Below are positions 1 to 18,837 of a DNA stretch of 19,368 bases, piece by piece. Under the pieces are notes generated by a model. It saw only the letters and a list, made by a program, of their open reading frames with translations, was not told the DNA's origin and did not search any database. The position numbers were made by a program, and so were the translations under genes. Each line of letters opens with the position of its first letter. The stretch's first letter is position 1. The stretch is from Promethearchaeota archaeon (lineage in GTDB: Archaea > Asgardarchaeota > Hermodarchaeia > Hermodarchaeales > Hermodarchaeaceae): positions 1 through 19,368 of the forward strand of contig JBHLPH010000030.1 of assembly GCA_048939625.1 (NCBI GenBank), in the 5' to 3' direction.

Positions 1-489
1 TCCTTGCTAGTTAATGGTACCGTAGTACCCTTCCCATGGATGTTCTTCCAACTCCCAGCAATCATCGTGTGCCTCACCTTTGTAATCACTGGAATATTTG
101 ATGGTGCAGTGAATGTAGTCCAGCAGCGGCTAATCCTGGATTTGATTCCTGATCGAACCCGAAATTCCCTATACAGCCTGTTTCCAACACTTACACTGAT
201 TTTCGCGGCACCTCAACTAATATTCTTCAGCAGTCTTCTTCCAGTCGTGGGTCCCTCTCCTATTCTCATCGGCCTTAGCCTTGTCAGCACCAGTGGGTGC
301 ATGTTCATTGCCCTTGGAATGCACTATAGACCAAAATCTAAGGAGCCAGAGAAACGGTCCATAAAAGACTCGGCGAAAGAGGTAAAGGAACCTTCGGAGC
401 CCCAAAAAGAAGGAGCTCAAGAAAATTCCATCGAGCTTCCAGATGAAATACCCCCAAAGAGAGCAGAAGAAACTCATGAAGAGGTGTAG
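1..489 (+). CDS. MFS transporter, C-terminal part (5'-truncated by the window)
   Basis: Frame is open from base 1. Three hydrophobic helices with an MFS-like loop 'LIPDRTRNSLYSL' between TM10 and TM11, then a charged, low-complexity cytoplasmic tail. Confidence 0.75.
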   Translation, partial: SLLVNGTVVPFPWMFFQLPAIIVCLTFVITGIFDGAVNVVQQRLILDLIPDRTRNSLYSLFPTLTLIFAAPQLIFFSSLLPVVGPSPILIGLSLVSTSGCMFIALGMHYRPKSKEPEKRSIKDSAKEVKEPSEPQKEGAQENSIELPDEIPPKRAEETHEEV

Positions 490-582
490 AGCTATTCTTA
501 GGTGACGTTTTTGTTTGGTTATGTTGGAGCAAAAAAGTAAACGATTTATAGTGGTCCTAATTTTGCTTGTTAGTATTCAACT

Positions 583-598
583 AAAGAAGGATATTAAG
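583..598 (+). promoter_or_regulatory. Candidate archaeal BRE/TATA promoter for the GNAT-OB gene
   Basis: Purine-rich AAAGAAGG followed by ATATTAAG (591-598), about 29 nt upstream of ATG 627. An alternative TTTATA lies at 545-550. Confidence 0.35.
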
Positions 599-626
599 GC
601 GTTTTCCCGATTTCGTGGTGTTAGGA

Positions 627-1424
627 ATGAATCAATCTCGTGATGTGTCTCTACAGAATGCATCGATTGCAGATGCGGAGATCCTGACAAATACATGTAA
701 GAGAGCATTTGAGTCGGACTTGGAGTTTGGTGCACCTGGTCCGGGTGGACCACCCGGATATGACTCGATTGAATGGAATACTAAGGTAATTCAAAATAAG
801 TGGCTGCAGTATCGTAAGATTCTGTTGGGTTCAGAGGTTGTTGGGGGATTCATTGTAGGAAATCGAGGGCCTGGGTATCAAGTCTGTGAGAGAATCTGGA
901 TCGATCCAGATTATATGAGAAGTGGGATTGCGACAAAGGCTTTCGAACTTGTCTGGGAGCTATACACGTCTGCAGATTTGTGGGTGTTAGGGACTCCAGA
1001 GTGGAATGTTCGAACGAATCCATTCTATAAGACTCTGGGATTTGTCCAGATTGGGACCACCCATGATAATCCCACGTGGACCGGCATCTACTATGAAAAA
1101 CGGATTTCCGATGAATTTCCACAAGCCATGTCACGGATTGCAGATATCCAGAACGGTCAGCAGAGAGTTCTGGTTGAAGGAATGGTGGAGGAGATCTCAA
1201 AGCCTCGCACGGTTTTTTCGAAAAAGACTGGTGAAGAGCTCAAGGTTGCTGAAATAAGGTTTTCAGATGAGACGGGTTCTATCAAACTTGTCATCTGGAA
1301 TGAGCAGATTAGACAGGTAAAAGAGAACACATCTATTCGAATCGAAGAAGGGTATGTCAAAGAATTCAGAAATGAACTCCAGCTTAGTATCGGGAAATGG
1401 GGAATGATCATCACACTACTTTAA
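627..1424 (+). CDS. GNAT N-acetyltransferase fused to a C-terminal SSB/RPA-type OB-fold domain
   Basis: GNAT motif A 'IWIDPDYMRSGIATK' and motif B 'NPFYKTLGF'. The last ~98 aa ('DETGSIKLVIWNEQ...IRIEEGYVKEFRNELQLSIGK') match the archaeal SSB/RPA OB pattern. ATG 627 follows GGTG (617-620); GTG 615 is an alternative start. Confidence 0.88.
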   Translation: MNQSRDVSLQNASIADAEILTNTCKRAFESDLEFGAPGPGGPPGYDSIEWNTKVIQNKWLQYRKILLGSEVVGGFIVGNRGPGYQVCERIWIDPDYMRSGIATKAFELVWELYTSADLWVLGTPEWNVRTNPFYKTLGFVQIGTTHDNPTWTGIYYEKRISDEFPQAMSRIADIQNGQQRVLVEGMVEEISKPRTVFSKKTGEELKVAEIRFSDETGSIKLVIWNEQIRQVKENTSIRIEEGYVKEFRNELQLSIGKWGMIITLL

Positions 1425-1595
1425 ACTATTTCAGCAATTGTTACAGGGCTTGACGAGTAAGGAGTTTCACCAACACTCATTTTTGGGCAGCATCGAGACG
1501 TCCGTATTGTGCGGAGTCGAAGTAGCAGCTTAGTGGTTCTTTTTCTAGGTTGCTGAGAGAAGAAGCTATTAGCAGGATGCATTACTGCGTAGGTC

Positions 1596-2408
1596 ATGAA
1601 GTTTGGGATTAGCATCGCTAATTTCGGAGTTAGTGTTCGACCACAGGATTATGCGAGGTTAGCGCGAGAAGCCGAAGAGGTTGGCTGGGATGGCTTCTTT
1701 CTCTGGGATCATGTTCATTTTGGACGAGGGAATTCCAACCTTGATCCGTGGATTGTACTTGCGGCCATTGCATGCAATACGGAAAGTATTCGGATAGGCA
1801 CTCATATCACACCGCTTCCGCGTAGGCGTCCGCAAAAGGTAGCGAGAGAAGCCGTCTCACTCGATTATCTATCTGATGGCCGCATGATTCTCGGAGTTGG
1901 GCTTGGAGAACCTTCCAAGACAGAGTTTGCAGTGTTTGGAGAACCGACTGACCTCAAGGTCCGAGCGAAGATGCTTGATGAATCCTTAGAGATTATCACA
2001 TGTCTTTGGTCGGGTAAGCCTTGTAACTATGAAGGAGTCTACCGAAAGGCGATGGGAGTGAGGTTTGAGCCACAGCCACTCCAGAAGCCACGGATCCCCA
2101 TCTGGGTGGGAGGTAGATGGCCTAAAAAGGGTGCATTTAAACGGGCGGCGCGGTTTGATGGGGTTACCCCAATTGGGGTTGGGAATCCATCACGATTTCA
2201 AGCCATGATGGAGTATGTGAATAGGCATCGTAAAAATAAGGGAAAATTTGACTGGATCTGTTACAACCCATATCTGTCGAAGCCGAAACGGAATCAGGTC
2301 GCATCTGAATACAAAGATATTGGGGCAACGTGGTATCTCGAATCGTGGGGAGCTCTCCCTTTGGACCGTCAGCTCAAGAGACTGGCACGAGGTCCTCCTG
2401 ACATCTAA
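1596..2408 (+). CDS. LLM-class (luciferase-like) flavin/F420-dependent oxidoreductase
   Basis: 'AEEVGWDGFFLWDH', 'DPWIVLAAIA..TESIRIGT', 'LDYLSDGRMILGVGLG' and 'PQPLQKPRIPIWVGG' are LLM family signatures. Confidence 0.93.
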   Translation: MKFGISIANFGVSVRPQDYARLAREAEEVGWDGFFLWDHVHFGRGNSNLDPWIVLAAIACNTESIRIGTHITPLPRRRPQKVAREAVSLDYLSDGRMILGVGLGEPSKTEFAVFGEPTDLKVRAKMLDESLEIITCLWSGKPCNYEGVYRKAMGVRFEPQPLQKPRIPIWVGGRWPKKGAFKRAARFDGVTPIGVGNPSRFQAMMEYVNRHRKNKGKFDWICYNPYLSKPKRNQVASEYKDIGATWYLESWGALPLDRQLKRLARGPPDI

Positions 2409-2468
2409 TGCTTAATCAAATACATAGGAGAAGAATCAAGTATCGAATTGAAAAATGGGGATATTAAG

Positions 2469-3269
2469 ATGGAGCCTTCTGTTGGCGTCTTAGAAGCGTT
2501 TGGTGTTTGTGGCAGCCCGATTCCATTGCCGGGTGGTCAAAGAACGACATTTCGTGTGGGGGACATCGTTCTGAAGCCTGCACAAAGTGAGGTTGAGGCG
2601 ATCTGGGTGATTGAAGTCTTGGATGGAATTGTGGAAGATGCGTTTCGTGTTCCTCATTTCCTGTCTTCAGATACTGGAGAGTTGCTTGTTGATGGGTGGA
2701 TGGCGTACGAGTTTCTTCCGGGAAAGATGGTGCAAGATCATTGGATTGAAAAGCGCGAGGTACTTGAACGGTTTCATTGGGTCTTGAAAGATGTGCCATT
2801 TCCCCCGTTTTTCGCACATCGAGATGACCCTTGGGCACTGGCAGATTTCATGGTTTGGGGAGAAATGCCGATTAGCTGCCATGCACGGTTAAAACCTGCT
2901 GTTGAGAAGTTGGTTGGGTTCTTGGAACCGATTGAGGTTACGAACCAGATAATCCAAGGAGATCCGGATAATATACTGTTTGCAGAAAACTTTCCGCCTG
3001 CGATAATTGATTTTTGTCCTTATTGGCGACCAGCCAACTTTGCCTTAGCCGTGTTAGTCGTTGATAAGTTAGTTTGGAGTGGAGCAGATGAATCGATTGT
3101 GCAGGTTTTTGCCGATATTCCGGAGTTTCCTCAGTTGTTGATAAGAGCGGAGCTGCGTCGTGTGCTTGAGATTGATGGGCATTTTCACCAGTTTGGAAAA
3201 GACTGTTTAGATGAAGTAGATGCCCATTTACCTACAATTGGGTTCATTTGTTCATTGGCACAAGGTTAG
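2469..3269 (+). CDS. Aminoglycoside-phosphotransferase-like kinase (TIGR02569-like)
   Basis: 'VLEAFG...PLPGGQ....RVGDIVLKP', catalytic-loop-like 'QIIQGDPDNILF' and 'PAIIDFCPYWRP'. ATG 2469 follows GGGGA (the ORF track starts at TTG 2448). Confidence 0.8.
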   Translation: MEPSVGVLEAFGVCGSPIPLPGGQRTTFRVGDIVLKPAQSEVEAIWVIEVLDGIVEDAFRVPHFLSSDTGELLVDGWMAYEFLPGKMVQDHWIEKREVLERFHWVLKDVPFPPFFAHRDDPWALADFMVWGEMPISCHARLKPAVEKLVGFLEPIEVTNQIIQGDPDNILFAENFPPAIIDFCPYWRPANFALAVLVVDKLVWSGADESIVQVFADIPEFPQLLIRAELRRVLEIDGHFHQFGKDCLDEVDAHLPTIGFICSLAQG

Positions 3270-3288
3270 AAGACTTCAGAAGCAGAGG

Positions 3289-3939
3289 TTAAATTTTTAA
3301 TTTCTTATTCTTCTCAGGAATAAGGCATTTCGCTTTGGGAAACTCGGTTTTGAAGTGTTTACAGAAGCCTTTGGGACTTCGAAAGACCCAGTGCATAGGA
3401 ACAATGGTTGGTAGGGGTCGATCGAATTTCGTTAACTCCTCTATGGCCCGTTTGGGAGATGCTGTAAATCCTCCGAAAATCGGTATAGCAAGAACATCGA
3501 GTTTAGCCCTTGCAAACCCACCGAATCGGACAGCATCACCAACGTGTCCGAAGGCAAATTCATCAGTTCGGACGATGACACCAAGATTCATTTTGCCTTT
3601 AGTAACGCCATGAGGCTCCTCTATAAATCTTAAGCTCCATGGACCTTGTTGGACAAACTCACCTGATGAGACGACAATGGTTCGGTGGGTCCAATGTTTG
3701 AATTTCTTCGCAACTTGAGTGCTGCCCATTAGGAAGGCGACTGGATTTTGTTCCATGAAGACATTCACGCCACCAGTATGATCTGGGTGGTCGTGTGTGC
3801 AGTAGACGATATCGCCTTCACGGTCACCCGAGGCTTTGTTCTGTGGATCAATTACGATAGATGAATCTTGAAATTCTAGAAGAAACCCAGAATTGCCGAG
3901 AAAAGTGAGGAGTGGTTTTGTTTGCAAAGCGTTTCTCAA
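3289..3939 (-). CDS. MBL-fold metallo-hydrolase (UlaG/UPF0173-like)
   Basis: HxHxDH motif 'THDHPDH', 'IVIDP', 'HVGD' and 'PMHW'. Confidence 0.9.
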   Translation of the reverse strand: MRNALQTKPLLTFLGNSGFLLEFQDSSIVIDPQNKASGDREGDIVYCTHDHPDHTGGVNVFMEQNPVAFLMGSTQVAKKFKHWTHRTIVVSSGEFVQQGPWSLRFIEEPHGVTKGKMNLGVIVRTDEFAFGHVGDAVRFGGFARAKLDVLAIPIFGGFTASPKRAIEELTKFDRPLPTIVPMHWVFRSPKGFCKHFKTEFPKAKCLIPEKNKKLKI

Positions 3940-4080
3940 CTCGTTTTACAGAGGTTGGTGCTTTTAACAGGCTTAAAGACTAAAAGCGTAACTTCTCTGT
4001 CAGAAATGGTGGGAATAACTTTATTCTGAAGTTGGGTGCCCATTGGGAAATACGAAAATGAAGCTCGTTCCAACTGGACA

Positions 4081-4893
4081 TCAAAAGCGTATTGAACAGC
4101 CCTTCGATTTTAAGAATCGAAGCCAATCTTCAAACTCTGGAGCAAGTCTGTGGATTGAGTTTTTTTCGAGACGCAGCACTTTGAGAGATATGAGCTTAGT
4201 GATGCTTGGAGGGAGCCTAGAGAGTTTGTTTGAATGGACAGAAAGAACTTCAAGTGCACTAAGGCGACCGATTTCCTCTGGCAGGGCCTTGAGTTTGTTA
4301 TTGTGAAGAATCAACCTTCGAAGGTTAGTCAGTTTACAAAAGGTTTCGGGGATGGATGTAAGTTGGTTTGTCGAAGCAATGAAATCCCATAAGTTAGTAA
4401 GCTGTCCAATGCTATCTGGGATAGACTCTAACTGAACGTTGAGAAGACCTAATCTTTCAAGAGATTGAAGACTCCCAATATTTTGGGGAAGGGCTGGAAT
4501 GAAATTTCGAGAGAGATCAAAACGACGAAGCTGGTGGAGATTTCCAATACGTTCAGGAAGGTAGGTGATGTGGTTATTGAAGATGTCAAGATTCTTTAGG
4601 TTTGAGAGATTTCCGATGACGGATGGAAGATTAAGGAGTCTATTATCTCGAAGGTAGAGATGTTCAAGATGGGTAAGCGCTTGAATCGAATCGGGCAGAT
4701 TAGTTAATCTCTTTTTATGTAGACTTAAACCAACGACATGTTTATTCTGATATGCAAATCCAGTTTTGTAAAAAGCGATTCCGCCCGAAGGAATTGGCTG
4801 GGAAAGTAGTTCTTCAATTTCCTGTAGAACCGCAACCTCGCTGCTATAGAGTTGGATACCGCGATAAAATGAAGTAATCTTTTTGCTTGACAT
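4081..4893 (-). CDS. Leucine-rich repeat protein (~9 repeats of 23 aa)
   Basis: Tandem LxLxxNxLxxLPxxIGxLxxL repeats, with an N-cap ('EVAVLQEIEELL...GFAYQNKHVVGLSL') of the kind common in Asgard LRR proteins. Confidence 0.95.
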   Translation of the reverse strand: MSSKKITSFYRGIQLYSSEVAVLQEIEELLSQPIPSGGIAFYKTGFAYQNKHVVGLSLHKKRLTNLPDSIQALTHLEHLYLRDNRLLNLPSVIGNLSNLKNLDIFNNHITYLPERIGNLHQLRRFDLSRNFIPALPQNIGSLQSLERLGLLNVQLESIPDSIGQLTNLWDFIASTNQLTSIPETFCKLTNLRRLILHNNKLKALPEEIGRLSALEVLSVHSNKLSRLPPSITKLISLKVLRLEKNSIHRLAPEFEDWLRFLKSKGCSIRF

Positions 4894-4900
4894 CGTCGAA

Positions 4901-5530
4901 TTACTCTTCTTGGGAAGGTTTTGGCCTTCGGATTCGCGGGAAGAATCGTCCGGTTCGGTTCATATAAGTTTGATATTGAGCTCCGAACTCATTGAGGAGC
5001 ATTTGTTCTTCACGTTTCGAGATGGGATAAAGTGAGAAGCAGACTACGAGTCCGAAGATGGTTACGAAAAGATTAGCAGCAAGGAGCACAGTAGCCAAGG
5101 TAAAGAGAATGAATGTTGTATACATTGGATGACGGATCCGAGAATAGGGACCACTAGTCATGAGCTTGTGTTGAGTTTGGATTTCTAATTCAGCGGAGTA
5201 GAAACGATCAAGAGTTCGGTGAGTCCAAACTAGCAACGGAATTACGCTGAAGCCTAGAATTACACCCGCCCACCGAAGAAGGTAGGGGAAGGGTAAGGGA
5301 AACCAAGGTATCCAAGGTGGAATGAGCAAAAAGAGAGCATATGCGACAAACATTCCCACAATACCAATGGAGATTGTGACGTGAGCCCAGGTTCGAGGAG
5401 GACGTTTAGCGGGTGTATCACTGAATGCCTTTTGCGTCTTTGCCGTTTTACGTCGGTAATAGATACGAAACCCCCCAAAAAGGAGGTATAGGACGACAAA
5501 GAGAAGACGAAAGAGGAGTTCTTCGAACAA
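4901..5530 (-). CDS. Isoprenylcysteine carboxyl methyltransferase (ICMT/Ste14/PEMT) family membrane methyltransferase
   Basis: 'HKLMTSGPYSRIRHPMYT' and 'KREEQMLLNEFGAQYQTYMNRTGRFFP' motifs and several TM helices. Likely start is TTG 5530 (GGTGG RBS upstream) or GTG 5539, not 5926. Confidence 0.88.
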   Translation of the reverse strand: MFEELLFRLLFVVLYLLFGGFRIYYRRKTAKTQKAFSDTPAKRPPRTWAHVTISIGIVGMFVAYALFLLIPPWIPWFPLPFPYLLRWAGVILGFSVIPLLVWTHRTLDRFYSAELEIQTQHKLMTSGPYSRIRHPMYTTFILFTLATVLLAANLFVTIFGLVVCFSLYPISKREEQMLLNEFGAQYQTYMNRTGRFFPRIRRPKPSQEE

Positions 5531-5659
5531 TCCAACCACCGCCCTATGGTGAATCGAAGTCGTATTTGTATGCAATGATAGCGGGCATTTCATTGGGTTA
5601 GCCGGTAACATAAAGGTAAAAACGCGTGAATCTGGAATCCTGTGCAGTTGGTGATTGTT

Positions 5660-5881
5660 GTGGAACGCAACTCCCGACTTGAAGATCGGCTCGAAGTTGC
5701 AATGGGCTTTTTGGCGTTTGTCGGGGTTGGGATAGCAATGGGTATACCCTTCATTCTCATTTTCTCGAGTATACTGCTTCATATCCCATATCTTGAGGTC
5801 ATGGTTTTGATTTGTCAAGTGGGAGGTTGCATCATGACAGGTATTGCTTTGGGGTATTTCATTTGCCGCAAAGAAATGTGA
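5660..5881 (+). CDS. Small two-TM membrane protein (73 aa), hypothetical
   Basis: GGTGA RBS at 5650-5654 and GTG at 5660; two hydrophobic helices; fills the gap left once the ICMT start is corrected. Confidence 0.6.
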   Translation: MERNSRLEDRLEVAMGFLAFVGVGIAMGIPFILIFSSILLHIPYLEVMVLICQVGGCIMTGIALGYFICRKEM

Positions 5882-5940
5882 TTGCGACTCACTATTTCTA
5901 AAAAAGGAGGGAATGCAGATCAACAAGTGATTTGACGCTG

Positions 5941-6303
5941 CTAGGCGGCTTCTTCTGGGATGACGGCTCCGGCGATTATCACTAGTAAACCTGGAATCAC
6001 TCCTGTGAAGATGAGGGCAAGAACACCTGTTAAGATGAGTTTTTGTTTATATTCGGTGGGAGCGTCACGCCATCGAAGCCAGGAAATACCAAAGAGGAGC
6101 GCAAGGATTCCAAAGACTATCAGCGGAACACCAGGGATGAACACCCAGATCCAATCGAGGGGGTCACTGATGCCACCAAGGAGAAATCCTATGGCGGTGC
6201 CTATGCTGCTTCCAGCGCCTCCGATGAGGAGAAAGATAGCGATGATGATTTGGAATATTGCTCCAATGAGAATGAGAGTTGTTGCTGTTGTTTCGTCTGA
6301 CAT
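5941..6303 (-). CDS. Small membrane protein (3-4 TM, DUF4064-like), hypothetical
   Basis: Strongly hydrophobic and Gly-rich; ends 'GVIPGLLVIIAGAV'; GGAGG-like RBS upstream of the ATG. Confidence 0.75.
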   Translation of the reverse strand: MSDETTATTLILIGAIFQIIIAIFLLIGGAGSSIGTAIGFLLGGISDPLDWIWVFIPGVPLIVFGILALLFGISWLRWRDAPTEYKQKLILTGVLALIFTGVIPGLLVIIAGAVIPEEAA

Positions 6304-6404
6304 CAGAAGGAAATCCTCCGAATCATGTAAGAGTGGAGAGCCTTTGTTGCCTAAGTTTGCCTAATTAAGCCTTTGCGATATTTGAGGTTCTCTTGAGCCA
6401 GAAA

Positions 6405-7364
6405 CTAGAATGCATAAAGGCGTTGTCCATTTTCCCAATACAAATCCCTAAGTACGCGGTCCGGCAGATTAAGACCATTAATGAAGGTTCCTCCGCTTGC
6501 TTCAGTATCAGCATCTGGGAAAGGGAGAGGCGTATTTCTTTCAGTTGTTTCCCAAAGTATTCGCTGGGCAATATACCGTGCTTTGTAAGGAGACAAACCT
6601 GCGCGTTTGCCCCAGGATCTGTTTGCATTTAATGTTGAATCGGTTCCGAAGAGGATGCGTTTGGAAAACCGGATAAGAAAATTCCGAGCTGCATAAGGAT
6701 CTTTGCTCAGTTCACGAGCCATCCAGCGAGAAGACGCCGTATCAACAACAATATTATCAAAGGTTTCGAACCACGTGGCGAGACGAGGTAAGCGGTGGAT
6801 TTCTGGTTGCGCACCGAAATGGGCAAGTTGAAATTGAAGTTTGGGATTGTTCGCTATGAGCGTTTCTAATTCATCGAGATGCGCATCCTTTGTACCAAAG
6901 ACTTCAGTATTCGCGTAATTGGTAGCATAATAGGTATCCGGATCGGACATATGAAGAAGTAAAGGAAACCCTTCAGCAGCAAGTTTATCAAAAATAGGCT
7001 GATAGCGCTCATCGGTAATTCGAAAGTCGGCTTCATAATTTTTGAAGTAGTTACGCCAACCCGGAGCCGCCCACATCTTCGCCAGCGAGAACCCGTTTTC
7101 ACGCATCTGATCAATTTCAGAGAGAACAAAATCAATTTTTGAACCGATGATATTCTGGGTTGACAAATACTTGGCAAACACAAATTTTCCCGGATAATGT
7201 TGTTCAGTAAAATTCCGAACCGCAGTGAGATGAGCGATTACTAGCTGGGATTTGATTCCAAGTGTCTCTTGTTCTTCAATAGTTTGGTTGATATTAGTGG
7301 TTTCCCAGACATGGGTATGAGCATCAAAAATCGGACCTTTAAATTTGAAAGAGTGACCTTGCAA
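6405..7364 (-). CDS. Amidohydrolase-family (Amidohydro_2) TIM-barrel metallohydrolase
   Basis: 'IFDAHTH', 'PLLLHMSD', 'LAHFG', 'VDTAS', 'RILFGTD' and 'LYWENGQRL'. Confidence 0.9.
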   Translation of the reverse strand: MQGHSFKFKGPIFDAHTHVWETTNINQTIEEQETLGIKSQLVIAHLTAVRNFTEQHYPGKFVFAKYLSTQNIIGSKIDFVLSEIDQMRENGFSLAKMWAAPGWRNYFKNYEADFRITDERYQPIFDKLAAEGFPLLLHMSDPDTYYATNYANTEVFGTKDAHLDELETLIANNPKLQFQLAHFGAQPEIHRLPRLATWFETFDNIVVDTASSRWMARELSKDPYAARNFLIRFSKRILFGTDSTLNANRSWGKRAGLSPYKARYIAQRILWETTERNTPLPFPDADTEASGGTFINGLNLPDRVLRDLYWENGQRLYAF

Positions 7365-7470
7365 TTGCTAAATCGCCAGGGAACAATTCGGGGGGAGTGG
7401 AAAAGTGTGTTGGATTGTACTAATCCGTTGGATTCAGGTTAAAATTCGAAAATACGTTAAGCGAATACTC

Positions 7471-7797
7471 TTAGTCACCACGTGGATTTAAGGAGACGGG
7501 TTCAAACATCAAGACATATGAGGGTTCAAGGCTTTTGGGAGAATGCTCGACGCCTCGAGGAATCACGGTCATTTTTCCTTCCGTTAGAGTCAGATCAGGC
7601 TGTCCTTTTATACGAATGGTTATTTTCCCTTTCAAAATGAAGAAGAGTTCGTCAGCATTGGTGTGTTTGTGCATGGGAAACTCTCCATCGAAAAGAGCTA
7701 GCCGAATCACCTGATTATTTACTCGGGCAATTTCCTGAGGGTTCCAGGGTTGTTTCATTTGCTTGACATGTTCCCAAATGTCAATGATTGAAGTCAT
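7471..7797 (-). CDS. Cupin-domain protein
   Basis: 'GEFPMHKHTNADELFFILKG' and 'VIPRGVEHSP' metal-binding cupin motifs. ATG 7797 with a GAGG RBS avoids overlap with the upstream gene. Confidence 0.92.
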   Translation of the reverse strand: MTSIIDIWEHVKQMKQPWNPQEIARVNNQVIRLALFDGEFPMHKHTNADELFFILKGKITIRIKGQPDLTLTEGKMTVIPRGVEHSPKSLEPSYVLMFEPVSLNPRGD

Positions 7798-7844
7798 GAT
7801 CTTTGTCCTCGAGCCGTGGATACTGATTGTGTTGTGTCCATTCC

Positions 7845-8249
7845 TTATGTTCGCTTCGGTTCTGGTCGGCTGCAAAGGTTAATGAAAGCACCTAAGGCAC
7901 CCAAAAAGATGGCGAATAAAGTGATGCTCATGAATGCGCCGAACAGCGAGATGACACCGCCATAAGGCCATGATTTCTCGAAATAAATGATTGCAGCGCC
8001 TCCATACATGAGAAGCACTCCAATGACAATGATAACGTCGAGAATGAGATAGTTATAGATTTGGAATCCCATCCAAGGTGGAATTGAGGGAAGAAACACA
8101 AAGAGCTGAAGATAAACGCTGTAAATAATATTCATCGTTGCAATTAGGGCACCAAAAAAAACGAGGCCAAACGCAATATAACTTGAGGCAGAACGTGATT
8201 TAGCTTCAAGAGATACAGCAGTTGTAGGAACGAAAGGTAATTCGGTCAA
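7845..8249 (-). CDS. Hypothetical membrane protein (3-4 TM)
   Basis: Hydrophobic helices; GGTGA RBS upstream of TTG 8249. Confidence 0.7.
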   Translation of the reverse strand: MTELPFVPTTAVSLEAKSRSASSYIAFGLVFFGALIATMNIIYSVYLQLFVFLPSIPPWMGFQIYNYLILDVIIVIGVLLMYGGAAIIYFEKSWPYGGVISLFGAFMSITLFAIFLGALGAFINLCSRPEPKRT

Positions 8250-8440
8250 AAGGGATTCACCGTTGATGAACCAGTTATTCTGAACTTAAATTCTCGGTTG
8301 CCTGCAAATAAGCGCCTCGATGTCCACCAGATTCCGAACCAACTCGTTCTCAAAAATGTCTAAACAGATCATTTTTGTGTCTAATTTTTGACTGACCGAT
8401 TTCCGAGCATATTTGTTAAATCATTCCGAGAATAGAACCG

Positions 8441-9379
8441 ATGGTGCGTATGCAAAAGCAAATTTTAATTTCAAATGGATACCGACCCGTATTGCTCTTT
8501 AATTTTCTTTTTCTGTTTCTCTTGCTTTGTCTCATCGGTGGGCCCCATAGGCTAGTTACTGGCCAGCAGTCTACAAATCTTTCAGGGGTTCCTGTTGCAG
8601 TTTACACTGGCGGACATTCAGATGAGAATTTAGCAAGCCGAACAGCATTAATTCATCTGCTGGAATGGTTAGATGCAGATCTGACTTTACTTTCACCAGA
8701 AGGCGTACTGAATGGTTCATTGGACGAGCAAGCAATGTTTGTTATGCCCGGAATCTCTCCCTACACTCTACGCGATGAAATGACACCCGTATGTTATGAT
8801 ATCATTCGAAACTTCATTGCTTCTGGTGGAGCCTATATTGGAATCTATGGTGGAACCTTCTTTGAGTGGACCCATTTCGAACTCTTTAATATAGAACTTC
8901 AAAACTACCTGCCTGAACTTCCTGCTGGAAAGAACCTTGTTACGGTGAACATCCACAAGAACGGAACTGGACCTGACCTATCAGCACTTCCGAATTCGTA
9001 TCAGATACTAAGTTGGACGGGAAGTTATTTCGATGCCCCAGACATGTCCCATGTAACCACGATTGCAAGCTACGCCCTCAATGATCTACCTTGTATGGTT
9101 TCTTTCAGGTATGGTAGTGGAGCCGTGTTTCTTTCCAGCCCCCATCCAGAAATCGAAGAAGGTGATATTCGGGACGGGACAACTTTCCAGGATGGATTGA
9201 ATGATCCCGACTCTGAATGGAATCTAATGCGAATTATTGCATGCTGGTTGATTGATACTGCCAGAGTTACACCAAGTAACCCAAATCCAATATTTGTGGT
9301 TACCCTAGCGATCGTTTCAATAATTGTAATTGTTATTGTTGCTTCAGTGCTCTATTGGAAAAGACTTCGAGTTAAGTAA
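8441..9379 (+). CDS. BPL-N (biotin-protein-ligase N-terminal / class I GATase-like) domain protein with signal peptide and C-terminal TM anchor
   Basis: 'VAVYTG', 'FVMPG', 'IRNFIASGGAYIGI', 'YGSGAVFLSSPHPE'; N-terminal hydrophobic leader; C-terminal TM followed by a basic tail. Confidence 0.82.
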   Translation: MVRMQKQILISNGYRPVLLFNFLFLFLLLCLIGGPHRLVTGQQSTNLSGVPVAVYTGGHSDENLASRTALIHLLEWLDADLTLLSPEGVLNGSLDEQAMFVMPGISPYTLRDEMTPVCYDIIRNFIASGGAYIGIYGGTFFEWTHFELFNIELQNYLPELPAGKNLVTVNIHKNGTGPDLSALPNSYQILSWTGSYFDAPDMSHVTTIASYALNDLPCMVSFRYGSGAVFLSSPHPEIEEGDIRDGTTFQDGLNDPDSEWNLMRIIACWLIDTARVTPSNPNPIFVVTLAIVSIIVIVIVASVLYWKRLRVK

Positions 9380-9464
9380 AATGAACTTGTGACTAGTTGG
9401 AATTTCCAGTTTAAAATCTGGAAATCCGCCTGATAGTGCGGCAGTTGAGATAATGGAACTAGGT

Positions 9465-10283
9465 TTATTCAGGTCCTTTGTAGTATTGGATAAGGTTGGA
9501 TTTCTTTAGATATGGAATGAGGATCATTCCGATAACTAAGATGATTGCTATGGCAATGGCTGAGTAGAAGATGATGGGGACAGTAATCCATTTCACTCCA
9601 ATTCCAGCTCCTGCCCATAGGAAGACTAGAGCAAACCCATAATCGCGGCGAAGATAGACCATGAGCAATGCGAGAAATACTGCTACGAAGAGCATGGCAG
9701 CAGTAGCAAGATGTTGAGTTTCAGTAGGAATGGCTGGAACTAAGATGTTAATGGAGGAGGCGATAGCCGCAACGGTGGCGACGGAAATCCATCCAAGATA
9801 GACGCTGAAATGCAGATGCACGGCTAGCTTCTCGTTTCGTGGCACTTTTTCTACTCCAACACCTAACCGGATGTAGGCTAGTAATAGCATTAGGAATACG
9901 ACTATTAGGAGTACAAGGGATGCTAGGAAGAAAGGTGGATTTGCCACCATGAAAGCGTAGGAGTAGTGGAAGACAAAAATCCAGCCGATATTGGCTAGTC
10001 CGCCAAGGAAGTAGAAGAGATTGATTTTTTGGAGGTAATCTTCGCTTCGTTGACTCGGTCGGGCTTGATAGATCATGAAGATTATGGCTTGGATGTAGAT
10101 GATGAACCAGATAGAGAATACGTACCCAGCAGGGGTGAAGAAGTTCGGGTAAGAATCAGAAACCTGCCCGGTATTTACTCCAAAGATAGGAAGTGCATTT
10201 GCAAGAATGTTAACGATAATCACTGAAATGACTGTGATGATGTTTAAGACCTGAAAAAGTAGGTAACTTCTTTTTTCAGTCAT
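9465..10283 (-). CDS. TspO/MBR-related (tryptophan-rich sensory protein-like) polytopic membrane protein
   Basis: 'VNILANALP...TGQVSDSYPNFFTPAGYVFSIWFIIY' and 'FSVYLGWISVAT' motifs; about 8 TM helices. Confidence 0.8.
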   Translation of the reverse strand: MTEKRSYLLFQVLNIITVISVIIVNILANALPIFGVNTGQVSDSYPNFFTPAGYVFSIWFIIYIQAIIFMIYQARPSQRSEDYLQKINLFYFLGGLANIGWIFVFHYSYAFMVANPPFFLASLVLLIVVFLMLLLAYIRLGVGVEKVPRNEKLAVHLHFSVYLGWISVATVAAIASSINILVPAIPTETQHLATAAMLFVAVFLALLMVYLRRDYGFALVFLWAGAGIGVKWITVPIIFYSAIAIAIILVIGMILIPYLKKSNLIQYYKGPE

Positions 10284-10306
10284 GGCGCGACTTGTAACGT
10301 TTTTCC

Positions 10307-10312
10307 TTATAA
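10307..10312 (-). promoter_or_regulatory. Candidate TATA box for a near-leaderless transcript of the TspO-like gene
   Basis: TTATAA 24 nt upstream of ATG 10283, with no RBS visible. Confidence 0.45.
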
Positions 10313-10411
10313 CTCTAGAAGGTGTTATGATTGGCGAGGACTGCCGGAATCCCTAAACTTTAAGAACGCAGCGCGGTAGTCTTGCCACTCATCTTACTGT
10401 GGACCGAATCT

Positions 10412-11776
10412 ATGAAAGCAAAGGTCGTATCCGCTTCATTTGGCTGCTTAATCTGCTTAATTGTCCTTTTTGCACCCATAACATATGCAAGCAGCACTCA
10501 ACTTCCTATCGGATCTGATGTGATATGGCATACTACTTTTGGAGGAACGCTTGCTGATTATGGAAATGACATAATTGAAAGACAGACTGGTGGATATGTG
10601 ATTGTGGGTGGAACTTTGAGTTCAGGTATCACCCATACTGACCTGTTGCTTGTTGGTTGCGATTGGAATGGGAACGAACTATGGAATCAGACAATTGGTG
10701 GTCCTAATGATGATGTTGGCTATGCAATAATCGAATGCACGGGAGGAGGATTCGCAATGACAGGATATTCGCGTAGCAATCCGTCCGGTCGTTCTGATGC
10801 ATGGTTGGTGCGGACGACAGCAGATGGAACACATCTGTGGAATCGTTCGTTTGGCGGACTTGATAATGACCAAGGCTTTGACATAATTGAAGTCGCAGCA
10901 GGCGGTTTTGCACTTGTTGGGAGCACGCGAAGTTATGGATCCGAAGACCCAATCACCCACCTACAAACCTATGACATTTGGTTGATTCGAACTGATGCAA
11001 TGGGCAATATATTGTGGAACCGAACTTATGGCCAAACCGGTGATGACATTGGTCGAACACTAGTTGAGTTAAGTGATGGCGGATTTCTTCTTCTCGGGGA
11101 GATTAACAGTAGCTTCGCCACTCTTGATCATTCTGGGCAATATACCGAATACCACCCCGATGCATGGCTTATCCGCACCAACCAAATGGGCGAGCAAATA
11201 TGGAATCAGACTTATGGTGGCGAATCAAATGACTTCATCCGTTCAGCTGTGATAAATGAGGATGGAGGATTCACCATTGTTGGCTTCACGAACAGCTATA
11301 GTACTTCGACCTATGATGGCTGGCTTCTGTTCACCGCTAGCGACAGTACCGAGGAAAACAGAATAACATATGGAAGTCATGCTGACGATTATTTCCGAAC
11401 TCTCCTAGAATGTGAATCGGATGGATATGCGTTGATTGGTTACACGTATCTCTCGTCTTCAGCAGACCTTTGGCTGACTCGGACGAACGTTCACGGCGTC
11501 CCCCTTTGGGCACGCGTTTTTGGCGGTCTGGAAGACGATGTTATTAGAGGAGGAATCCGAAGTCAGGGTAATTTCATTCTAGTCGGATATACATTTAGTT
11601 TTGGTGCAGGTTCACGGGATGTCTGGTTAGTAAAAATCGCTGATGAAGTTCCCTTAGTAAATCCCTTCCTTACAGCATTTCCAATTATACTAGTCGTGTC
11701 TGGAATTGTACTGATTGCTGTATTTTTAATTTCTAGCTATATACTTTATAGATGGCGAACGAATCGAATTTCATAA
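10412..11776 (+). CDS. Cell-surface beta-propeller repeat protein with signal peptide and C-terminal TM anchor
   Basis: Seven ~50-aa repeats of WNxT(F/Y)GGxxxD...GG(F/Y)xxxGxTxS...DxWLxRTD; N-terminal signal peptide from ATG 10412; C-terminal TM and basic tail. Confidence 0.88.
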   Translation: MKAKVVSASFGCLICLIVLFAPITYASSTQLPIGSDVIWHTTFGGTLADYGNDIIERQTGGYVIVGGTLSSGITHTDLLLVGCDWNGNELWNQTIGGPNDDVGYAIIECTGGGFAMTGYSRSNPSGRSDAWLVRTTADGTHLWNRSFGGLDNDQGFDIIEVAAGGFALVGSTRSYGSEDPITHLQTYDIWLIRTDAMGNILWNRTYGQTGDDIGRTLVELSDGGFLLLGEINSSFATLDHSGQYTEYHPDAWLIRTNQMGEQIWNQTYGGESNDFIRSAVINEDGGFTIVGFTNSYSTSTYDGWLLFTASDSTEENRITYGSHADDYFRTLLECESDGYALIGYTYLSSSADLWLTRTNVHGVPLWARVFGGLEDDVIRGGIRSQGNFILVGYTFSFGAGSRDVWLVKIADEVPLVNPFLTAFPIILVVSGIVLIAVFLISSYILYRWRTNRIS

Positions 11777-11793
11777 TGAACTATGGTTTTGAA

Positions 11794-13143
11794 TCACCAT
11801 TTGCCCATAAGGTCCATAATCACAACCAGTCGTTGCATAGCCTTGACAAAGTTATCTACGGGTACACTTTCGTTAGGTGAATGAGCACGAGAGTTATAAT
11901 CTCCAATACCAATTGAGACCATAGGCACATATTCTTTGAATAGGTAAAGTGGACCTGAGCCTGGACAGGTAGGATGGATTCGTATGGGGTGGCCAAAAAC
12001 TGCTTCATTAGCCTTGCTAATGATTTTGACGAAGGGATGGTCCACAGGAGTTTTAGCAGCCGGGTAGCCTTCGTACCATGCGATTTTGACATCAGTGAAT
12101 CCATGGTTATTAAGATGGGTTCGGAGCTTTCCGACGATATCCTTGGGCTGTTGGTTCTCAACCAACCGAAAATCAATTTTCGCTGAAGCTTTAGCAGGTA
12201 GAACAGTCATTGAGCCTGCTTCCTGGTAACCACTAGTCAAACCGTCGATGCTAAGATGAGGTTGATAATAATAGGCTTCACGAAGAGCATCGCCTTCATA
12301 GTGTGCAACAAAGCCATCGATACCATAGAATTTCTGCCGGGCTTCTTCTTCGAAATTAATCTTTGAGATGAATTTCTTTTCTACATCCGTCATCGGGACA
12401 ACGTCATCATAAAAACCCTTGATTTGAATCCGTTCAGTTTCATCCTTTAATGAACTGAGGGCCCATACTAAACGAAAGGGTGCTGATGGGAGAATTGCAG
12501 AGTTACTGGAATGTGCGTCATGAGAAAGCCGTTCAACTTCCAATTGCACGTATAAGATTCCCTTTAGCCCTAACCAGGCTTCTTGGGTTCCATCATATCC
12601 AGCGCTGCCGAATTCCCAAATTCCGCCATCAGCTTTGAGGAATTCATGATGTTTTCTAGTGAAATCGGGGAGGTTGGGGCTGCTGATTTCCTCTTCACCT
12701 TCAATTACAAATTTGATATTTACTGGAGGCTCCACGCCAGCATCCTTGAATGCGTTCACTGCCCAAATCCGTGAAATCGTATCTCCCTTATTGTCCGCAA
12801 TTCCCCGAGCATAAAATCGACCTTCACGAATCTCCGGGTCAAAGGGCGGGGAAACCCAGAGATCGAAGGGTTCAGCGGGTTGCACATCATAATGATCATA
12901 GAAAAGGAGTGTTCGTTTCGCGCCGACATCTAAGAAGCCGGTGACAACAGGGGCTCCGGAGGTAGAGTGTAATTCTGAGGGGATTCCAGCGTCATTGAGC
13001 ATTTTTTGTACAAGTTCTGCGGTTTCTTCGATTCCTTTTCCTTGCGCAGCCACTGTTGGGATGCTGCAGATTTTTTTCGCTGCATCAAGTGCCTTGTCGG
13101 CGTTTTGATCGATTTTTTCCAATACCTGACTAACCATTGACAT
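11794..13143 (-). CDS. M20/M25/M40 metallopeptidase (ArgE/DapE/dipeptidase-like)
   Basis: 'YDHYDVQP', 'RGIADNKG', 'EGEEEISS' and 'HSPNE'. Real start is probably ATG 13143 or 13137. Confidence 0.93.
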   Translation of the reverse strand: MSMVSQVLEKIDQNADKALDAAKKICSIPTVAAQGKGIEETAELVQKMLNDAGIPSELHSTSGAPVVTGFLDVGAKRTLLFYDHYDVQPAEPFDLWVSPPFDPEIREGRFYARGIADNKGDTISRIWAVNAFKDAGVEPPVNIKFVIEGEEEISSPNLPDFTRKHHEFLKADGGIWEFGSAGYDGTQEAWLGLKGILYVQLEVERLSHDAHSSNSAILPSAPFRLVWALSSLKDETERIQIKGFYDDVVPMTDVEKKFISKINFEEEARQKFYGIDGFVAHYEGDALREAYYYQPHLSIDGLTSGYQEAGSMTVLPAKASAKIDFRLVENQQPKDIVGKLRTHLNNHGFTDVKIAWYEGYPAAKTPVDHPFVKIISKANEAVFGHPIRIHPTCPGSGPLYLFKEYVPMVSIGIGDYNSRAHSPNESVPVDNFVKAMQRLVVIMDLMGKW

Positions 13144-13290
13144 TAACCCTAAACTAAAGAGTGGAAACTTTGTCTTTAATGTTGTAGCTTGTTCTGAGAA
13201 CCACTGGGGGCGTTTCCTTGCGCAGGCATCAGACTTTTCTACTTGCGAGCTTAACCGAGGAACCTCACCAATAGATATGGATAGATTCCT

Positions 13291-14601
13291 ATGGCGAAGA
13301 AAGTTGGTATCCGCCGTGAAAACAAAGACTTTGAACTGCGAACTCCCATCGTTCCCAAGGACGTTGAAGAGCTGATTAAATCTCATGGCTTTGAATTTGT
13401 AGTAGAACCTTCAGAGCAGCGCGCTTTTTCAGAAGCGAGTTACAAGAAGTCGGGAGCGGCAATCGCGGATCTTCAGGGTAAGGAAGTTCCGGTCATTTTT
13501 GGGATTAAAGAGATTCCCAAAGAGGTTTTTGAACCAGGAAAGGTATACCTGTTTTTCGCGCACGTCATCAAAGGTCAAGATTACAACATGGGAATGCTGC
13601 GACAAATTCTTGATGTGGGGGCGACTCTGATTGATTATGAACGAATAGTCGAAGTGGACTCAGGTCGCCGTTTAGTCTTTTTCGGTAACTGGGCAGGATA
13701 TGCTGGCATGGCAGAAACCCTTCGTGGATTCGGTGAACGATTAAGGGTGAAGAGTATTAGACCGAACCCCTTTGCCACCCTCAAACCGACCTACAAGTAT
13801 TCAGGGATGGATGAGTTACAGGCAGCAATTGAATCCGTTGGAGAGCAAATCCGAACAGAAGGCTTTGCCAAGGAACTGGCTCCATTGGTAGTTGGGCTCA
13901 TTGGTTACGGAAATACCTCACGGGGTGCCCAAGCAATCTTCGATATCCTTCCCCACAAACAGATAAATCCAGATGAGTTGTCAAATCTTGAACCAAATAA
14001 CAAACTACTATACAAGGTTGTTTTTCGTGAAGAGGATACTGTCCATTCTATTGATCCATCTGATACATTCGAATTACAACATTATTATGCTCATGGCAAG
14101 GCGAAGTACCAATCTACCTTTTTCAAGTACCTCCCATACCTCACTGTATTAATGAACTGCATTTATTGGACTGATAAATATCCACGCATGATAAGAAAAC
14201 AAGAACTGAAACATTTATGGGAAGATTTTCAGGGCCATCCACGACTCGTCATTGTTGGAGACATCAGTTGTGACATCCATGGTGCTATCGAATTCACTGT
14301 GGATTGCACGAAACCAGATCATCCAACCTTTGTGTACAATCCACTGACAGAAAAAGCAGAACTGGGTGTAGCTGGGGAAGGCGTGGTCGTAATGGCGGTG
14401 GACAACCTTCCTACGGAATTACCACGAGAGGCCTCGACATCATTTAGTGAAACACTCCAGAGGTTCATCCCGTCAATTGTGAAAGCTGATTACTCAGTAC
14501 CGTTTGAGGAATTAGATCTTCCTCCAGAAGTAAAGACTGCTGTTATCGTGTATCAAGGGAAACTCACACCTGATTACAAGTATCTCAAAAAGTATTTGTA
14601 A
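13291..14601 (+). CDS. Lysine-ketoglutarate reductase (saccharopine dehydrogenase, lysine-forming; LKR domain of AASS type)
   Basis: 'GIRRE..FELRTPIVP', 'FFAHVIKGQ', 'LIDYERIV', 'FGNWAGYAGM', 'GYGNTSRGAQ', 'NCIYW..KYPR', 'DISCD..GAIEF' and 'DNLPTELP' follow the AASS LKR domain as I recall it. Confidence 0.92.
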   Translation: MAKKVGIRRENKDFELRTPIVPKDVEELIKSHGFEFVVEPSEQRAFSEASYKKSGAAIADLQGKEVPVIFGIKEIPKEVFEPGKVYLFFAHVIKGQDYNMGMLRQILDVGATLIDYERIVEVDSGRRLVFFGNWAGYAGMAETLRGFGERLRVKSIRPNPFATLKPTYKYSGMDELQAAIESVGEQIRTEGFAKELAPLVVGLIGYGNTSRGAQAIFDILPHKQINPDELSNLEPNNKLLYKVVFREEDTVHSIDPSDTFELQHYYAHGKAKYQSTFFKYLPYLTVLMNCIYWTDKYPRMIRKQELKHLWEDFQGHPRLVIVGDISCDIHGAIEFTVDCTKPDHPTFVYNPLTEKAELGVAGEGVVVMAVDNLPTELPREASTSFSETLQRFIPSIVKADYSVPFEELDLPPEVKTAVIVYQGKLTPDYKYLKKYL

Positions 14602-14638
14602 CGCAAGAGCACGAAACAATGCCAAGAGGTATCAAGGA

Positions 14639-15961
14639 ATGAAACATGTATTGGTTCTTGGTGCAGGGTTGGTTGCCCGTCCATACGTGAATTATATGCT
14701 TGACCATGACTACCAGGTCACTGTTGCGAGCCGAACCGTAAGCAAGGCTATGAATCTAATTGGAGATCACCCAAATGGTGAAGCTAGAGCCTTTGATATT
14801 AGTCGACAAGCAAAGGAACTCAAGAACCTGGTGAAACCTGCTGACCTTGTCGTATCTCTTCTTCCCTACACATTTCACGTTCAAGTCGCTCGCGAATGCC
14901 TGCGTCACAAAGTGAACATGGTCACGACCTCATATGTATCAGATGAGATGCGCACTTTGGATGGTCAAGCAAAACGAGCAGACGTTATCATCCTAAACGA
15001 GTGTGGGGTGGATCCAGGACAAGACCATATGTCTGCCATGAAAATCATTCATGAAGCCCAAGCTCAGGGAGGGAAAATCTTGGCATTTACCAGCTTCACT
15101 GGAGGATTACCTGCACCCGATGCAAATACTAACCCATTTGGTTACAAGCTTTCATGGAGTCCACGTGGTGTCCTTTTAGCAGGACGAAATTCTGCCCTTT
15201 TCCAACGCGATGGCAAAAGAATCGAAATTCCAGCGGAAGAACTCTTCAACAGCTGTCATATCGAGTCTGTACCCGAACTTGGCGATTTTGAAGGGTACCC
15301 GAACCGTGATTCCCTTCAGTATATTGACATTTATGGTTTACAAGGCATCCAAACCATGTTACGTGGAACCCTTCGATATCCCGGCTGGTGTAAAACCATA
15401 TACAATATTGGTAAACTAGGCTTATTAGACATAGAGGAACAACCCCTTCGTGACCTGACGTACGCTCGATTTTTACGTCAATATCTCAAGTTGTCAGCTG
15501 GAGCCAACGTGAAAGAAGAGGTAGCAGCCCGACTCAAGCTTTCAGTTGACGATGAGGTAATAGAACGTTATGAATGGTTAGGACTCTTTGGAGATCATGA
15601 CATTCCACTCACTCAAGGTGCACCTATTGATGTTCTCGTGTCCCTCTTTCAAGAAAAGCTGCAGTATGCCCCGGGTGAACGCGATATGATCGTAATGCAG
15701 CACCAGTTTACAATAGAACACTCTGATAATTCGCATGAAAAGGTGCGTTCAACACTTATTGATTACGGGATTCCAAATGGCGATTCCTCCATGAGCCGTA
15801 CCGTTGCTCTTCCTGCCGCGATTGCCTCTCACTTGATTCTAACCGGTGAGATACAACTGAAAGGCGTCCAGATTCCCATTGTGCCCAAACTCTATGAACC
15901 AATTCTCCAAGAGCTAGAAACTTTTGGTATTCATTTCAAGGAAGAATCCACAACAACCTAA
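14639..15961 (+). CDS. Saccharopine dehydrogenase (L-glutamate-forming; Lys9 / AASS SDH domain)
   Basis: Rossmann motif 'VLVLGAGLVARP', 'VSLLPY', 'NECGVDPGQDH', 'NPFGYKLSWSPRG', 'FEGYPNRDS', 'RGTLRYPGW' and 'MSRTVALP'. Confidence 0.95.
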   Translation: MKHVLVLGAGLVARPYVNYMLDHDYQVTVASRTVSKAMNLIGDHPNGEARAFDISRQAKELKNLVKPADLVVSLLPYTFHVQVARECLRHKVNMVTTSYVSDEMRTLDGQAKRADVIILNECGVDPGQDHMSAMKIIHEAQAQGGKILAFTSFTGGLPAPDANTNPFGYKLSWSPRGVLLAGRNSALFQRDGKRIEIPAEELFNSCHIESVPELGDFEGYPNRDSLQYIDIYGLQGIQTMLRGTLRYPGWCKTIYNIGKLGLLDIEEQPLRDLTYARFLRQYLKLSAGANVKEEVAARLKLSVDDEVIERYEWLGLFGDHDIPLTQGAPIDVLVSLFQEKLQYAPGERDMIVMQHQFTIEHSDNSHEKVRSTLIDYGIPNGDSSMSRTVALPAAIASHLILTGEIQLKGVQIPIVPKLYEPILQELETFGIHFKEESTTT

Positions 15962-18818: not shown

Positions 18819-18837
18819 ACGAGTTCGCTGTGTTTGG

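Follow-up and report, generated by a model that had tools for sequence, protein, structure and literature searches.

GNAT acetyltransferases with a fused sensor or targeting domain exist, including protein acetyltransferases that carry a cNMP-binding or ACT domain and those of the Pat/YfiQ type, in which a small GNAT domain is covalently attached to a ligand-binding domain that sets its activity or target. The gene analyzed here (positions 627–1424, forward strand) lies in a 19,368-nucleotide stretch of DNA from Promethearchaeota archaeon (Asgardarchaeota; Hermodarchaeaceae; GenBank assembly GCA_048939625.1, contig JBHLPH010000030.1, positions 1–19,368 of the forward strand), hereafter the window. 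It encodes a protein of the same general plan, but the domain attached to its GNAT domain is an OB fold (for oligonucleotide/oligosaccharide binding) of the type found in SSBs, the proteins that bind single-stranded DNA. GNATs with fused domains and single-OB SSBs with varied effector tails are both known themes; the combination of a GNAT with an SSB-type OB domain appears to be undescribed. We found no description of a GNAT-OB fusion in the PDB or the searchable literature, and a preprint on Asgard histone acetyltransferases makes no mention of OB, SSB, or RPA; this agrees with a first reading of the DNA from its letters alone (the original prediction), which knew of no characterized protein with this architecture.

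With respect to the OB domain, the closest described proteins are the crenarchaeal SSB SsoSSB (PDB 1o7i, 2mna, and 7wcg) and human hSSB1/SOSS-B1 (5d8f and 4owt), which belong to the same single-OB family, PF21473. The fused OB domain conserves the base-stacking triad and the strand 2 Arg/Val pair of these proteins. Unlike them, it has no flexible acidic or RGG C-terminal tail and is instead attached to an N-terminal enzyme domain. In SsoSSB the triad Trp56, Trp75, and Phe79 stacks on three bases of single-stranded DNA (2MNA), and RNA is also a high-affinity ligand of this aromatic face (PMC5346138). Replication can proceed without the canonical crenarchaeal SSB, whose action is that of an RNA chaperone (PMC10684826). 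Given that the SSB face binds RNA and that a crenarchaeal SSB works as an RNA chaperone, RNA is as likely a platform for the fused OB domain as DNA.

With respect to the GNAT domain, the best sequence-profile and Foldseek matches, which cover nearly the whole domain, are PaiA, the spermidine/spermine N-acetyltransferase of Bacillus subtilis (1tiq), and the canavanine-selective enzyme of Lactobacillus curiae (8osp). Both share the cofactor loop and the Tyr with the fusion, but their identity to it is 18–22%, and they lack its GGPPGYDS loop, its TPEWN motif, and the OB domain. RimI (9mto and 5isv) and archaeal Ard1/Naa10 (4pv6 and 4r3k) are fold matches tied with PaiA and 8osp; these enzymes are also without an OB domain, and the fusion lacks a ribosomal or Naa15-type partner context. 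The RNA cytidine acetyltransferases TmcA and Nat10 combine a GNAT domain with helicase/ATPase and tRNA-binding modules, whereas the fusion consists of GNAT and OB domains only. The small antitoxin gene that adjoins the GNAT toxins TacT, AtaT, and ItaT was found neither in the window nor in the other loci examined.

Conservation of the GNAT-OB Fusion

The gene is a single uninterrupted open reading frame encoding 265 residues plus a stop codon (coordinates within it, all on the forward strand, are those of the window). A search of an index of 5.8 billion proteins returned 461 relatives, the best 120 of which are all of about 260–300 residues, carry both GNAT and OB Pfam marks at 63–85% identity, and are named as Thor-, Hermod-, Hod-, Sif-, or Promethearchaeota; the closest named relative is from Candidatus Hermodarchaeum yapensis (81% identity). 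Scanning 1.84 billion cluster representatives exhaustively and without a profile added some dozen full-length clusters, the most distant at 32% identity; ranked below them are stand-alone GNATs of about 160 residues (35–45% identity) and RPAs with several OB folds, which match the OB domain at about 30% identity. In species-representative genomes tblastn confirmed 113 stretches, and the counts of species loci given below rest on the 80 of these that are listed. The record titles of the listed fusions name Thor-, Hermod-, Hod-, and Heimdallarchaeota, Bathyarchaeia, and Theionarchaea. The original prediction was to be given up if the fusion were absent from related genomes; it is conserved in the genomes of more than 100 species of sediment archaea. 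The GNAT-OB fusion is genuine: its architecture recurs in hundreds of independent assemblies and is therefore not a product of chance or misassembly.

Full-length fusions cluster in a few families, and nearly all full-length genome matches are free of stop codons. In a set of 400 Asgard genomes, 81 gave a match at E ≤ 1e-30, in some cases only to a stand-alone GNAT paralog, and no relative of the fusion was found in 2.9 million viral contigs. In a maximum-likelihood tree of the GNAT domain, 42 fusions lie on one side of a branch that separates them from 22 stand-alone relatives (Shimodaira-Hasegawa-like approximate likelihood ratio test support 94), a topology by which a single fusion event may have been kept over a long time. 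Public databases hold hundreds of copies under generic names such as “GNAT family N-acetyltransferase” and “replication factor A1.” The only “bacterial” copy of the fusion, at a locus with the record title Krumholzibacteriaceae bacterium (L070), shares two flanking gene families with the Bathyarchaeia loci L061, L062, and L076, so its contig is probably misbinned.

The OB Domain

The SSB-type OB fold comprises residues 168–265 (98 residues, 1128–1421) and is joined to the GNAT domain at an in-frame methionine, as the original prediction had it (ATG 1128); the codon of Met168 (1128–1130) stands at the domain junction. Residues 183–261 match the Ssb-like_OB family PF21473 above its threshold (39.3 bits, cutoff 24), and the tRNA_anti-codon OB family PF01336 is matched at 32.8 bits (cutoff 27). 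The SSB and RPA models of NCBIfam match only the C-terminal 100 residues, with a best E of 4.6e-19 for PRK06461, the canonical archaeal SSB; the score against this model, 69 bits, lies far below its equivalog cutoff of 188, and none of the SSB models comes near its own. The RPA models likewise fall well short of assignment (e.g. 43.9 versus 362 bits), and with its single OB domain the protein does not qualify as an RPA. In the PDB, residues 171–257 match SsoSSB (1o7i, 2mna, and 7wcg; HMMER E about 2e-6), with further matches to an RPA-related OB domain from Methanobacterium (2k50) and to hSSB1, and the modeled OB half superimposes on SsoSSB 1o7i with a root-mean-square deviation (rmsd) of 1.4 Å over 98 columns (Foldseek). 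The expectation of an OB domain of some 98 residues built on the Sulfolobus SSB pattern is thus borne out.

The HMMER alignment also confirms the retention of the SsoSSB triad in the segments “VIWNE” and “GYVKEF,” where it had first been noticed. The equivalent of the base-stacking Trp56 is Trp224 (1296–1298), found in 42/42 fusions; Trp75 corresponds to Tyr243 (1353–1355), a position that is aromatic in 38/42, and Phe79 to Phe247 (1365–1367), which is Tyr or Phe in all 42. Trp224 is common to all ten sequences of an OB alignment that includes the stand-alone SSBs of the same genome, and Arg194, Val196, Val207, Asp214, Ile228, Gly242, Gly256, and Gly259 are likewise invariant in it.

The genome encodes three stand-alone single-OB SSB paralogs, and the fused OB domain aligns to them with one single-residue gap. 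It stops at the last strand, whereas the paralogs continue into tails. These tails differ, one being short and acidic, one RGG-rich, and one basic; the genes lie at L003:650–988 (+), L005:1483–1977 (+), and L005:2082–2558 (−), where L numbers denote loci, and two of them are convergent neighbors on contig C61. A further contig of the genome (C36) carries a multi-OB, RPA-like open frame of 589 residues with two OB matches. With SSBs and an RPA encoded separately in the genome, the fusion is not the general SSB of the cell.

The GNAT Domain

Residues 1–163 (627–1115) form the GNAT domain, which exceeds the superfamily threshold of Acetyltransf_1 (PF00583; 24.8 bits, cutoff 20.7, residues 66–139) and is borderline for Acetyltransf_7 (PF13508; 26.9 bits, cutoff 27). 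The acetyl-CoA pyrophosphate-binding loop, motif A, is M97-R-S-G100-I-A102 (915–932) and follows the pattern [Q/H/M]-x-x-G-x-[G/A]. When 42 fusions and 22 stand-alone relatives were aligned, Gly100 was found in 40/42 fusions and Gly or Ala at position 102 in 42/42, and the usual catalytic tyrosine, Tyr134 in helix α4, was present in every fusion and every stand-alone relative. The predicted enzyme therefore has both marks by which GNATs are recognized, the [Q/R]-x-x-G-x-[G/A] loop and the α4 Tyr, and the claim of a complete domain with intact acetyl-CoA motifs stands.

Between helices α1 and α2 lies a Pro/Gly-rich signature loop, G35–S47 (GAPGPGGPPGYDS; 729–767), of the pattern G-A-P-x-x-G-G-P-P-G-Y-D-S, in which Gly41, Pro42, and Tyr45 are invariant in the 42 fusions and 22 stand-alone relatives. 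The acceptor site of GNATs is walled on one side by the α1-α2 loop, and by analogy with GNATs generally the G35–S47 loop would border that site here. A second mark is W-x-L-x-T-P-E-W-N-x-R-x-x-x-F-Y. Judged by these motifs, the domain belongs to a distinct, uncharacterized GNAT subfamily with stand-alone relatives, one of which is a paralog in the same genome (contig C58). Two acidic positions separate the forms: Glu88 occurs in 36/42 and Glu125 in 40/42 fusions, each in only 3/22 stand-alone forms. The charge of the GNAT domain does not differ between fused and stand-alone forms and thus gives no indication that a basic path extends over it. The GGPPGYDS subfamily repeatedly acquires accessory domains; other members have a SWIM zinc finger, pentapeptide repeats, or a transglutaminase-like core as the fusion partner (metagenomic proteins P0134, P0167, and P0195). 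A search for longer architectures gave a single match, an unrelated GNAT-FapA protein.

The profile match of the GNAT half to PaiA 1tiq has an E of 1.3e-12, and the NCBIfam scores lie far from assignment to either PaiA/SSAT (NF053587; 14.9 bits, cutoff 250) or RimI (TIGR01575; 14.4 bits, cutoff 86.4). By fold, VIA-align places the RimI-like 9mto first (Z 19.3, rmsd 1.6 Å over 138 residues), together with 8osp (Z 19.1), archaeal Ard1 (4pv6, Z 18.9, and 4r3k, Z 17.1), and 3fnc (Z 18.7), among more than 300 PDB chains at Z ≥ 8; the Foldseek matches include PaiA, SpeG, and Naa50. Small-amine and N-terminal acetyltransferase folds are thus tied at Z 17–19, and the fold is silent on the class of acceptor.

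Predicted Interdomain Packing

An AlphaFold2 single-chain model built on a 132-sequence alignment has a mean predicted local distance difference test score (pLDDT) of 94.2 and a predicted template modeling score of 0.88, with an ordered linker (pLDDT about 94). Folding of the two domains as separate chains gave an ipSAE interface score of 0.86, versus 0.01 for the best of three controls, with at least 97% of contacts shared between the runs and a partner pLDDT of at least 91; among solved complexes 58 of 80 attain this ipSAE mark, among mismatched pairs 2 of 110, figures that apply only roughly here since our own alignment was used. Because the folded chains are halves of one polypeptide, the result describes fixed intramolecular packing and not a binding event. 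Foldseek searches and a VIA-align comparison with all of 48,161 PDB representatives found no solved chain spanning both domains, the halves matching separately, so that recall of a known complex is unlikely. The protein is predicted to be a rigid two-domain body.

The predicted interface is formed by residues 80–81, 84, 141–147, 149, and 155 of the GNAT domain and 180, 182, 226, 229–230, 238, 240–241, and 260–265 of the OB domain. The OB domain is predicted to dock on GNAT strand β6 and the start of the β6-β7 loop (residues 141–147, 1047–1067), and its last strand (residues 260–265, MIITLL, 1404–1421) to pair with β6; the lowest-error contacts are between 142–146 and 261–264. In the same model the short OB helix (226–230) touches the start of the β6-β7 loop (145–147). 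The β6-β7 element of GNATs borders the acceptor site. Conservation follows the predicted interface: in the last OB strand Ile262 is kept in 35/42 and Leu264 in 38/42 fusions, and on the GNAT side Gln141 (39/42), Gly143 (42/42), and Trp or Thr at position 144 are features of the fusions that the stand-alone GNATs do not keep. Position 155 is aromatic in 40/42 fusions and Leu in stand-alone forms. Trp224, Tyr243, Phe247, Arg194, and Val196 are all outside the named interface list, which is compatible with an exposed binding groove in the model.

Proposed Function and Alternative Explanations

We propose, at a probability of roughly one half, that the OB domain docks the GNAT acetyltransferase on single-stranded nucleic acid and that acetyl-CoA is spent on an amine there, a reading built on conserved sequence features and on the structural model. 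The protein would be a compact enzyme in which a predicted competent GNAT domain is rigidly packed on an OB domain of the crenarchaeal-SSB/hSSB1 type with its base-stacking residues. The OB domain would dock this enzyme on single-stranded DNA or RNA, and acetyl-CoA would then be spent on an amine located at the bound nucleic acid. A protein bound to the nucleic acid could provide the acceptor, as a lysine or as its N terminus, or a polyamine bound there could be the acceptor. The acidic residues around the acceptor site and the affinities to PaiA and the canavanine GNAT suggest a cationic amine (polyamine, lysine, or N terminus), and since the structural similarity to RimI and Ard1 is equal, proteins remain candidate acceptors.

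Beyond tethering, nucleic-acid binding could gate or activate catalysis. The OB domain abuts the β6-β7 element bordering the acceptor site in the model, and for this reason nucleic acid might gate the reaction. In the boldest version, which we regard as unlikely, single-stranded DNA or RNA on an OB domain locked to the acceptor-site β6-β7 loop would switch on or redirect acetyl transfer, making the protein a nucleic-acid-gated acetyltransferase. If this were true, an exposed single strand, as in replication stress, R-loops, or unstructured RNA, would translate directly into acetylation of a bound protein, a polyamine, or the nucleic acid, a signaling principle undescribed for prokaryotic GNATs, and this in archaeal relatives of eukaryotes. 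In eukaryotes, chromatin and the damage response depend centrally on the acetylation of proteins and polyamines at DNA and RNA, yet hardly anything is known of how archaea target acetylation; in the present protein the acetyltransferase has an SSB-type domain built in, and the pair is conserved across Asgard archaea, Bathyarchaeia, and Theionarchaea. The identity of the acceptor would show whether the enzyme marks proteins or ligands specifically at exposed single strands or whether the SSB fold has been re-used beyond nucleic acid, and either outcome would be a new function for two very well-studied folds. With 265 residues the protein is small and soluble-looking, and should be easy to express.

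Several observations weigh against a nucleic-acid-docked role. In sequence, the solved GNATs nearest to the fusion act on small amines: PaiA on polyamines and 8osp on canavanine. Fused OB domains are basic on average (median isoelectric point 9.35), but that of the window is itself charge-neutral (6.6). Residues that the interface list does not name count as “uncertain,” so that the aromatic face may, but need not, be exposed. The fusion is patchy, occurring in 9 of 15 genomes of the window's own genus but rarely in the Asgard family with the most genomes in the sample (3 of 135), and is thus widespread yet accessory and not core machinery. When all open reading frames within 3 kb of the fusion were clustered in the 80 species loci, and three long contigs were inspected, no recurrent replication, repair, chromatin, or RNA-processing partner was found in those loci; the neighbors that do recur (membrane methyltransferases of the ICMT/PEMT type, MFS transporters, and oxidoreductases) fit small-molecule metabolism better. 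The original prediction had offered, as one of two options, the acetylation of proteins at replication, repair, or chromatin sites, for which gene context gives no backing, no such gene recurring in the 80 loci.

These points lead to a different explanation, improbable in our judgment yet to be taken seriously: the protein may be a small-molecule amine acetyltransferase acting on a polyamine, an amino-acid analog, or a xenobiotic, with an OB domain that, instead of anchoring nucleic acid, extends the acceptor site (as a structural element or to bind a ligand) or serves as a protein-interaction module, and with its aromatic residues kept for binding that ligand or for stabilizing the barrel. 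Its nearest solved sequence relatives are the spermidine/spermine acetyltransferase PaiA and the canavanine-selective 8osp, but the identity to them is low, the NCBIfam PaiA score falls far short of its cutoff, and by fold the small-amine enzymes are tied with RimI and archaeal Ard1. Genomic context agrees with it in part. Stand-alone GNATs of the subfamily occur in detoxification-like contexts (MFS, GyrI-like, methyltransferase, and aldo-keto reductase genes), and the recurrent neighbors of the fusion include MFS, ICMT-like methyltransferase, aldo-keto reductase, and cupin genes; these neighbors, however, vary in side, strand, and family, and the MFS protein of the window is not homologous to that of the Thor clade. 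The packing of the OB domain onto the β6-β7 element that shapes the acceptor site in the model would suit an acceptor-site extension, whereas the retention of the SsoSSB base-stacking residues and the near-gapless alignment with the SSB paralogs of the genome count against this explanation. The nucleic acid might also be the acceptor itself, with the OB domain holding a single-stranded segment and the GNAT domain acetylating an amine on it: the α-amine of an aminoacyl-tRNA, an exocyclic amine of a base, or the amine of a modified nucleoside. Aminoacyl-tRNA and cytidine are known substrates of some GNATs, the OB domain matches the tRNA_anti-codon family, and Trp224 precedes by two residues the OB helix in contact with the acceptor-site loop 145–147, which may bring one end of the binding groove close to the active site. 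We nevertheless think this quite unlikely: the OB domain matches SSB/RPA models better than the anticodon-binding family, Pfam finds no helicase, THUMP, or other RNA-modification module in the protein, no antitoxin-like gene adjoins it, stand-alone relatives with the same acceptor-loop motif have no nucleic-acid-binding domain, and the conserved acidic residues Asp31, Asp46, Glu88, and Glu125 that line the GNAT domain would be unfavorable for a polyanionic acceptor.

A toxin or defense module, either the GNAT toxin of a toxin-antitoxin pair or an anti-virus effector triggered by nucleic acid, is very improbable. GNAT toxins are known and the distribution among genomes is patchy, but there is no match in PADLOC (which is not a complete toxin catalog), no relative in the viral contigs, and no conserved small partner gene in the window or the loci examined, and a family that may have a single origin, with orthologs at 63–85% identity in several archaeal lineages, is unlike fast-evolving conflict genes. 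The likeness to aminoacyl-tRNA-acetylating GNAT toxins drawn in the original prediction is not supported, there being no antitoxin-like neighbor, no PADLOC match, and well-conserved orthologs. An assembly or gene-calling artefact that joins two genes has a negligible chance of being correct. The in-frame Met168 at the junction would allow it, as would strain heterogeneity in the metagenome-assembled genome (MAG), which has an estimated contamination of 6.3% and a second contig end with 97%-identical residues 1–31. Against it stand the hundreds of independent assemblies encoding the same uninterrupted protein of about 265 residues, the ordered linker of the model, the conserved, fusion-specific interface residues, and the lack of a Shine-Dalgarno-like sequence ahead of ATG 1128. 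An internal start at ATG 1128, which would give a free OB protein, was considered and rejected: no Shine-Dalgarno-like sequence precedes it, and Met168 is replaced by Leu, Ile, or Thr in many relatives.

Gene Neighborhood and Upstream Region

In the 80 species loci the fusion has no conserved operon partner or consistently adjacent gene. An ICMT/PEMT-like membrane methyltransferase lies within 3–4 kb of it in 13 loci, from Thor, Hermod-like, and Heimdall-type clades (among them L014:1573–2190, L016:5050–5682, and L027:2300–2836), with additional copies at 4904–5926 (−) in the window and on a variant contig of the same genome; identity to the copy of the window is 25–67%. MFS transporters of different families occur near the fusion in 11 and 4 loci, and the window's MFS protein shows no homology to the Thor-clade one at E 1e-5. 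Aldo-keto reductases, a cupin, and ArsR/MarR-type regulators also recur. The recurrent neighbors vary in side and strand, and the proposed function is for that reason not built on gene context. The contexts of three stand-alone GNAT relatives are heterogeneous; one of these genes, a single case, is two genes away from a WYL-domain regulator.

Directly downstream of the ICMT-like gene of the window, and co-oriented with it, is a gene for a leucine-rich-repeat protein of 270 residues (4084–4893, −; LRR_14, LRR_4, and LRR_8). A 273-residue open reading frame without a Pfam match (2448–3266, +) has counterparts of 67% identity near the fusion gene of two close relatives, at L016:134–922 and L018:1148–1945. 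In Candidatus Hodarchaeum mangrovi, an intein-containing family-B DNA polymerase with LAGLIDADG and intein splicing domains (L088:4084–6768, −) is convergently downstream of the fusion gene, again a single case.

The start codon of the fusion gene, ATG 627, is the start of all close homologs and is conserved in an upstream-DNA alignment of the window, a variant copy on contig C2 of the same genome, and four relatives. A candidate archaeal TATA box, TTTATA (545–550, +), about 77 nucleotides 5′ of the start, is invariant in this alignment, so the gene probably has its own promoter. The variant copy (C2:3–95, −; locus L004:1–260) consists of a contig end with fusion residues 1–31, at 97% identity, and the upstream region; it is probably a co-assembled strain variant, and an ICMT/PEMT-like gene (L004:387–983) adjoins it.

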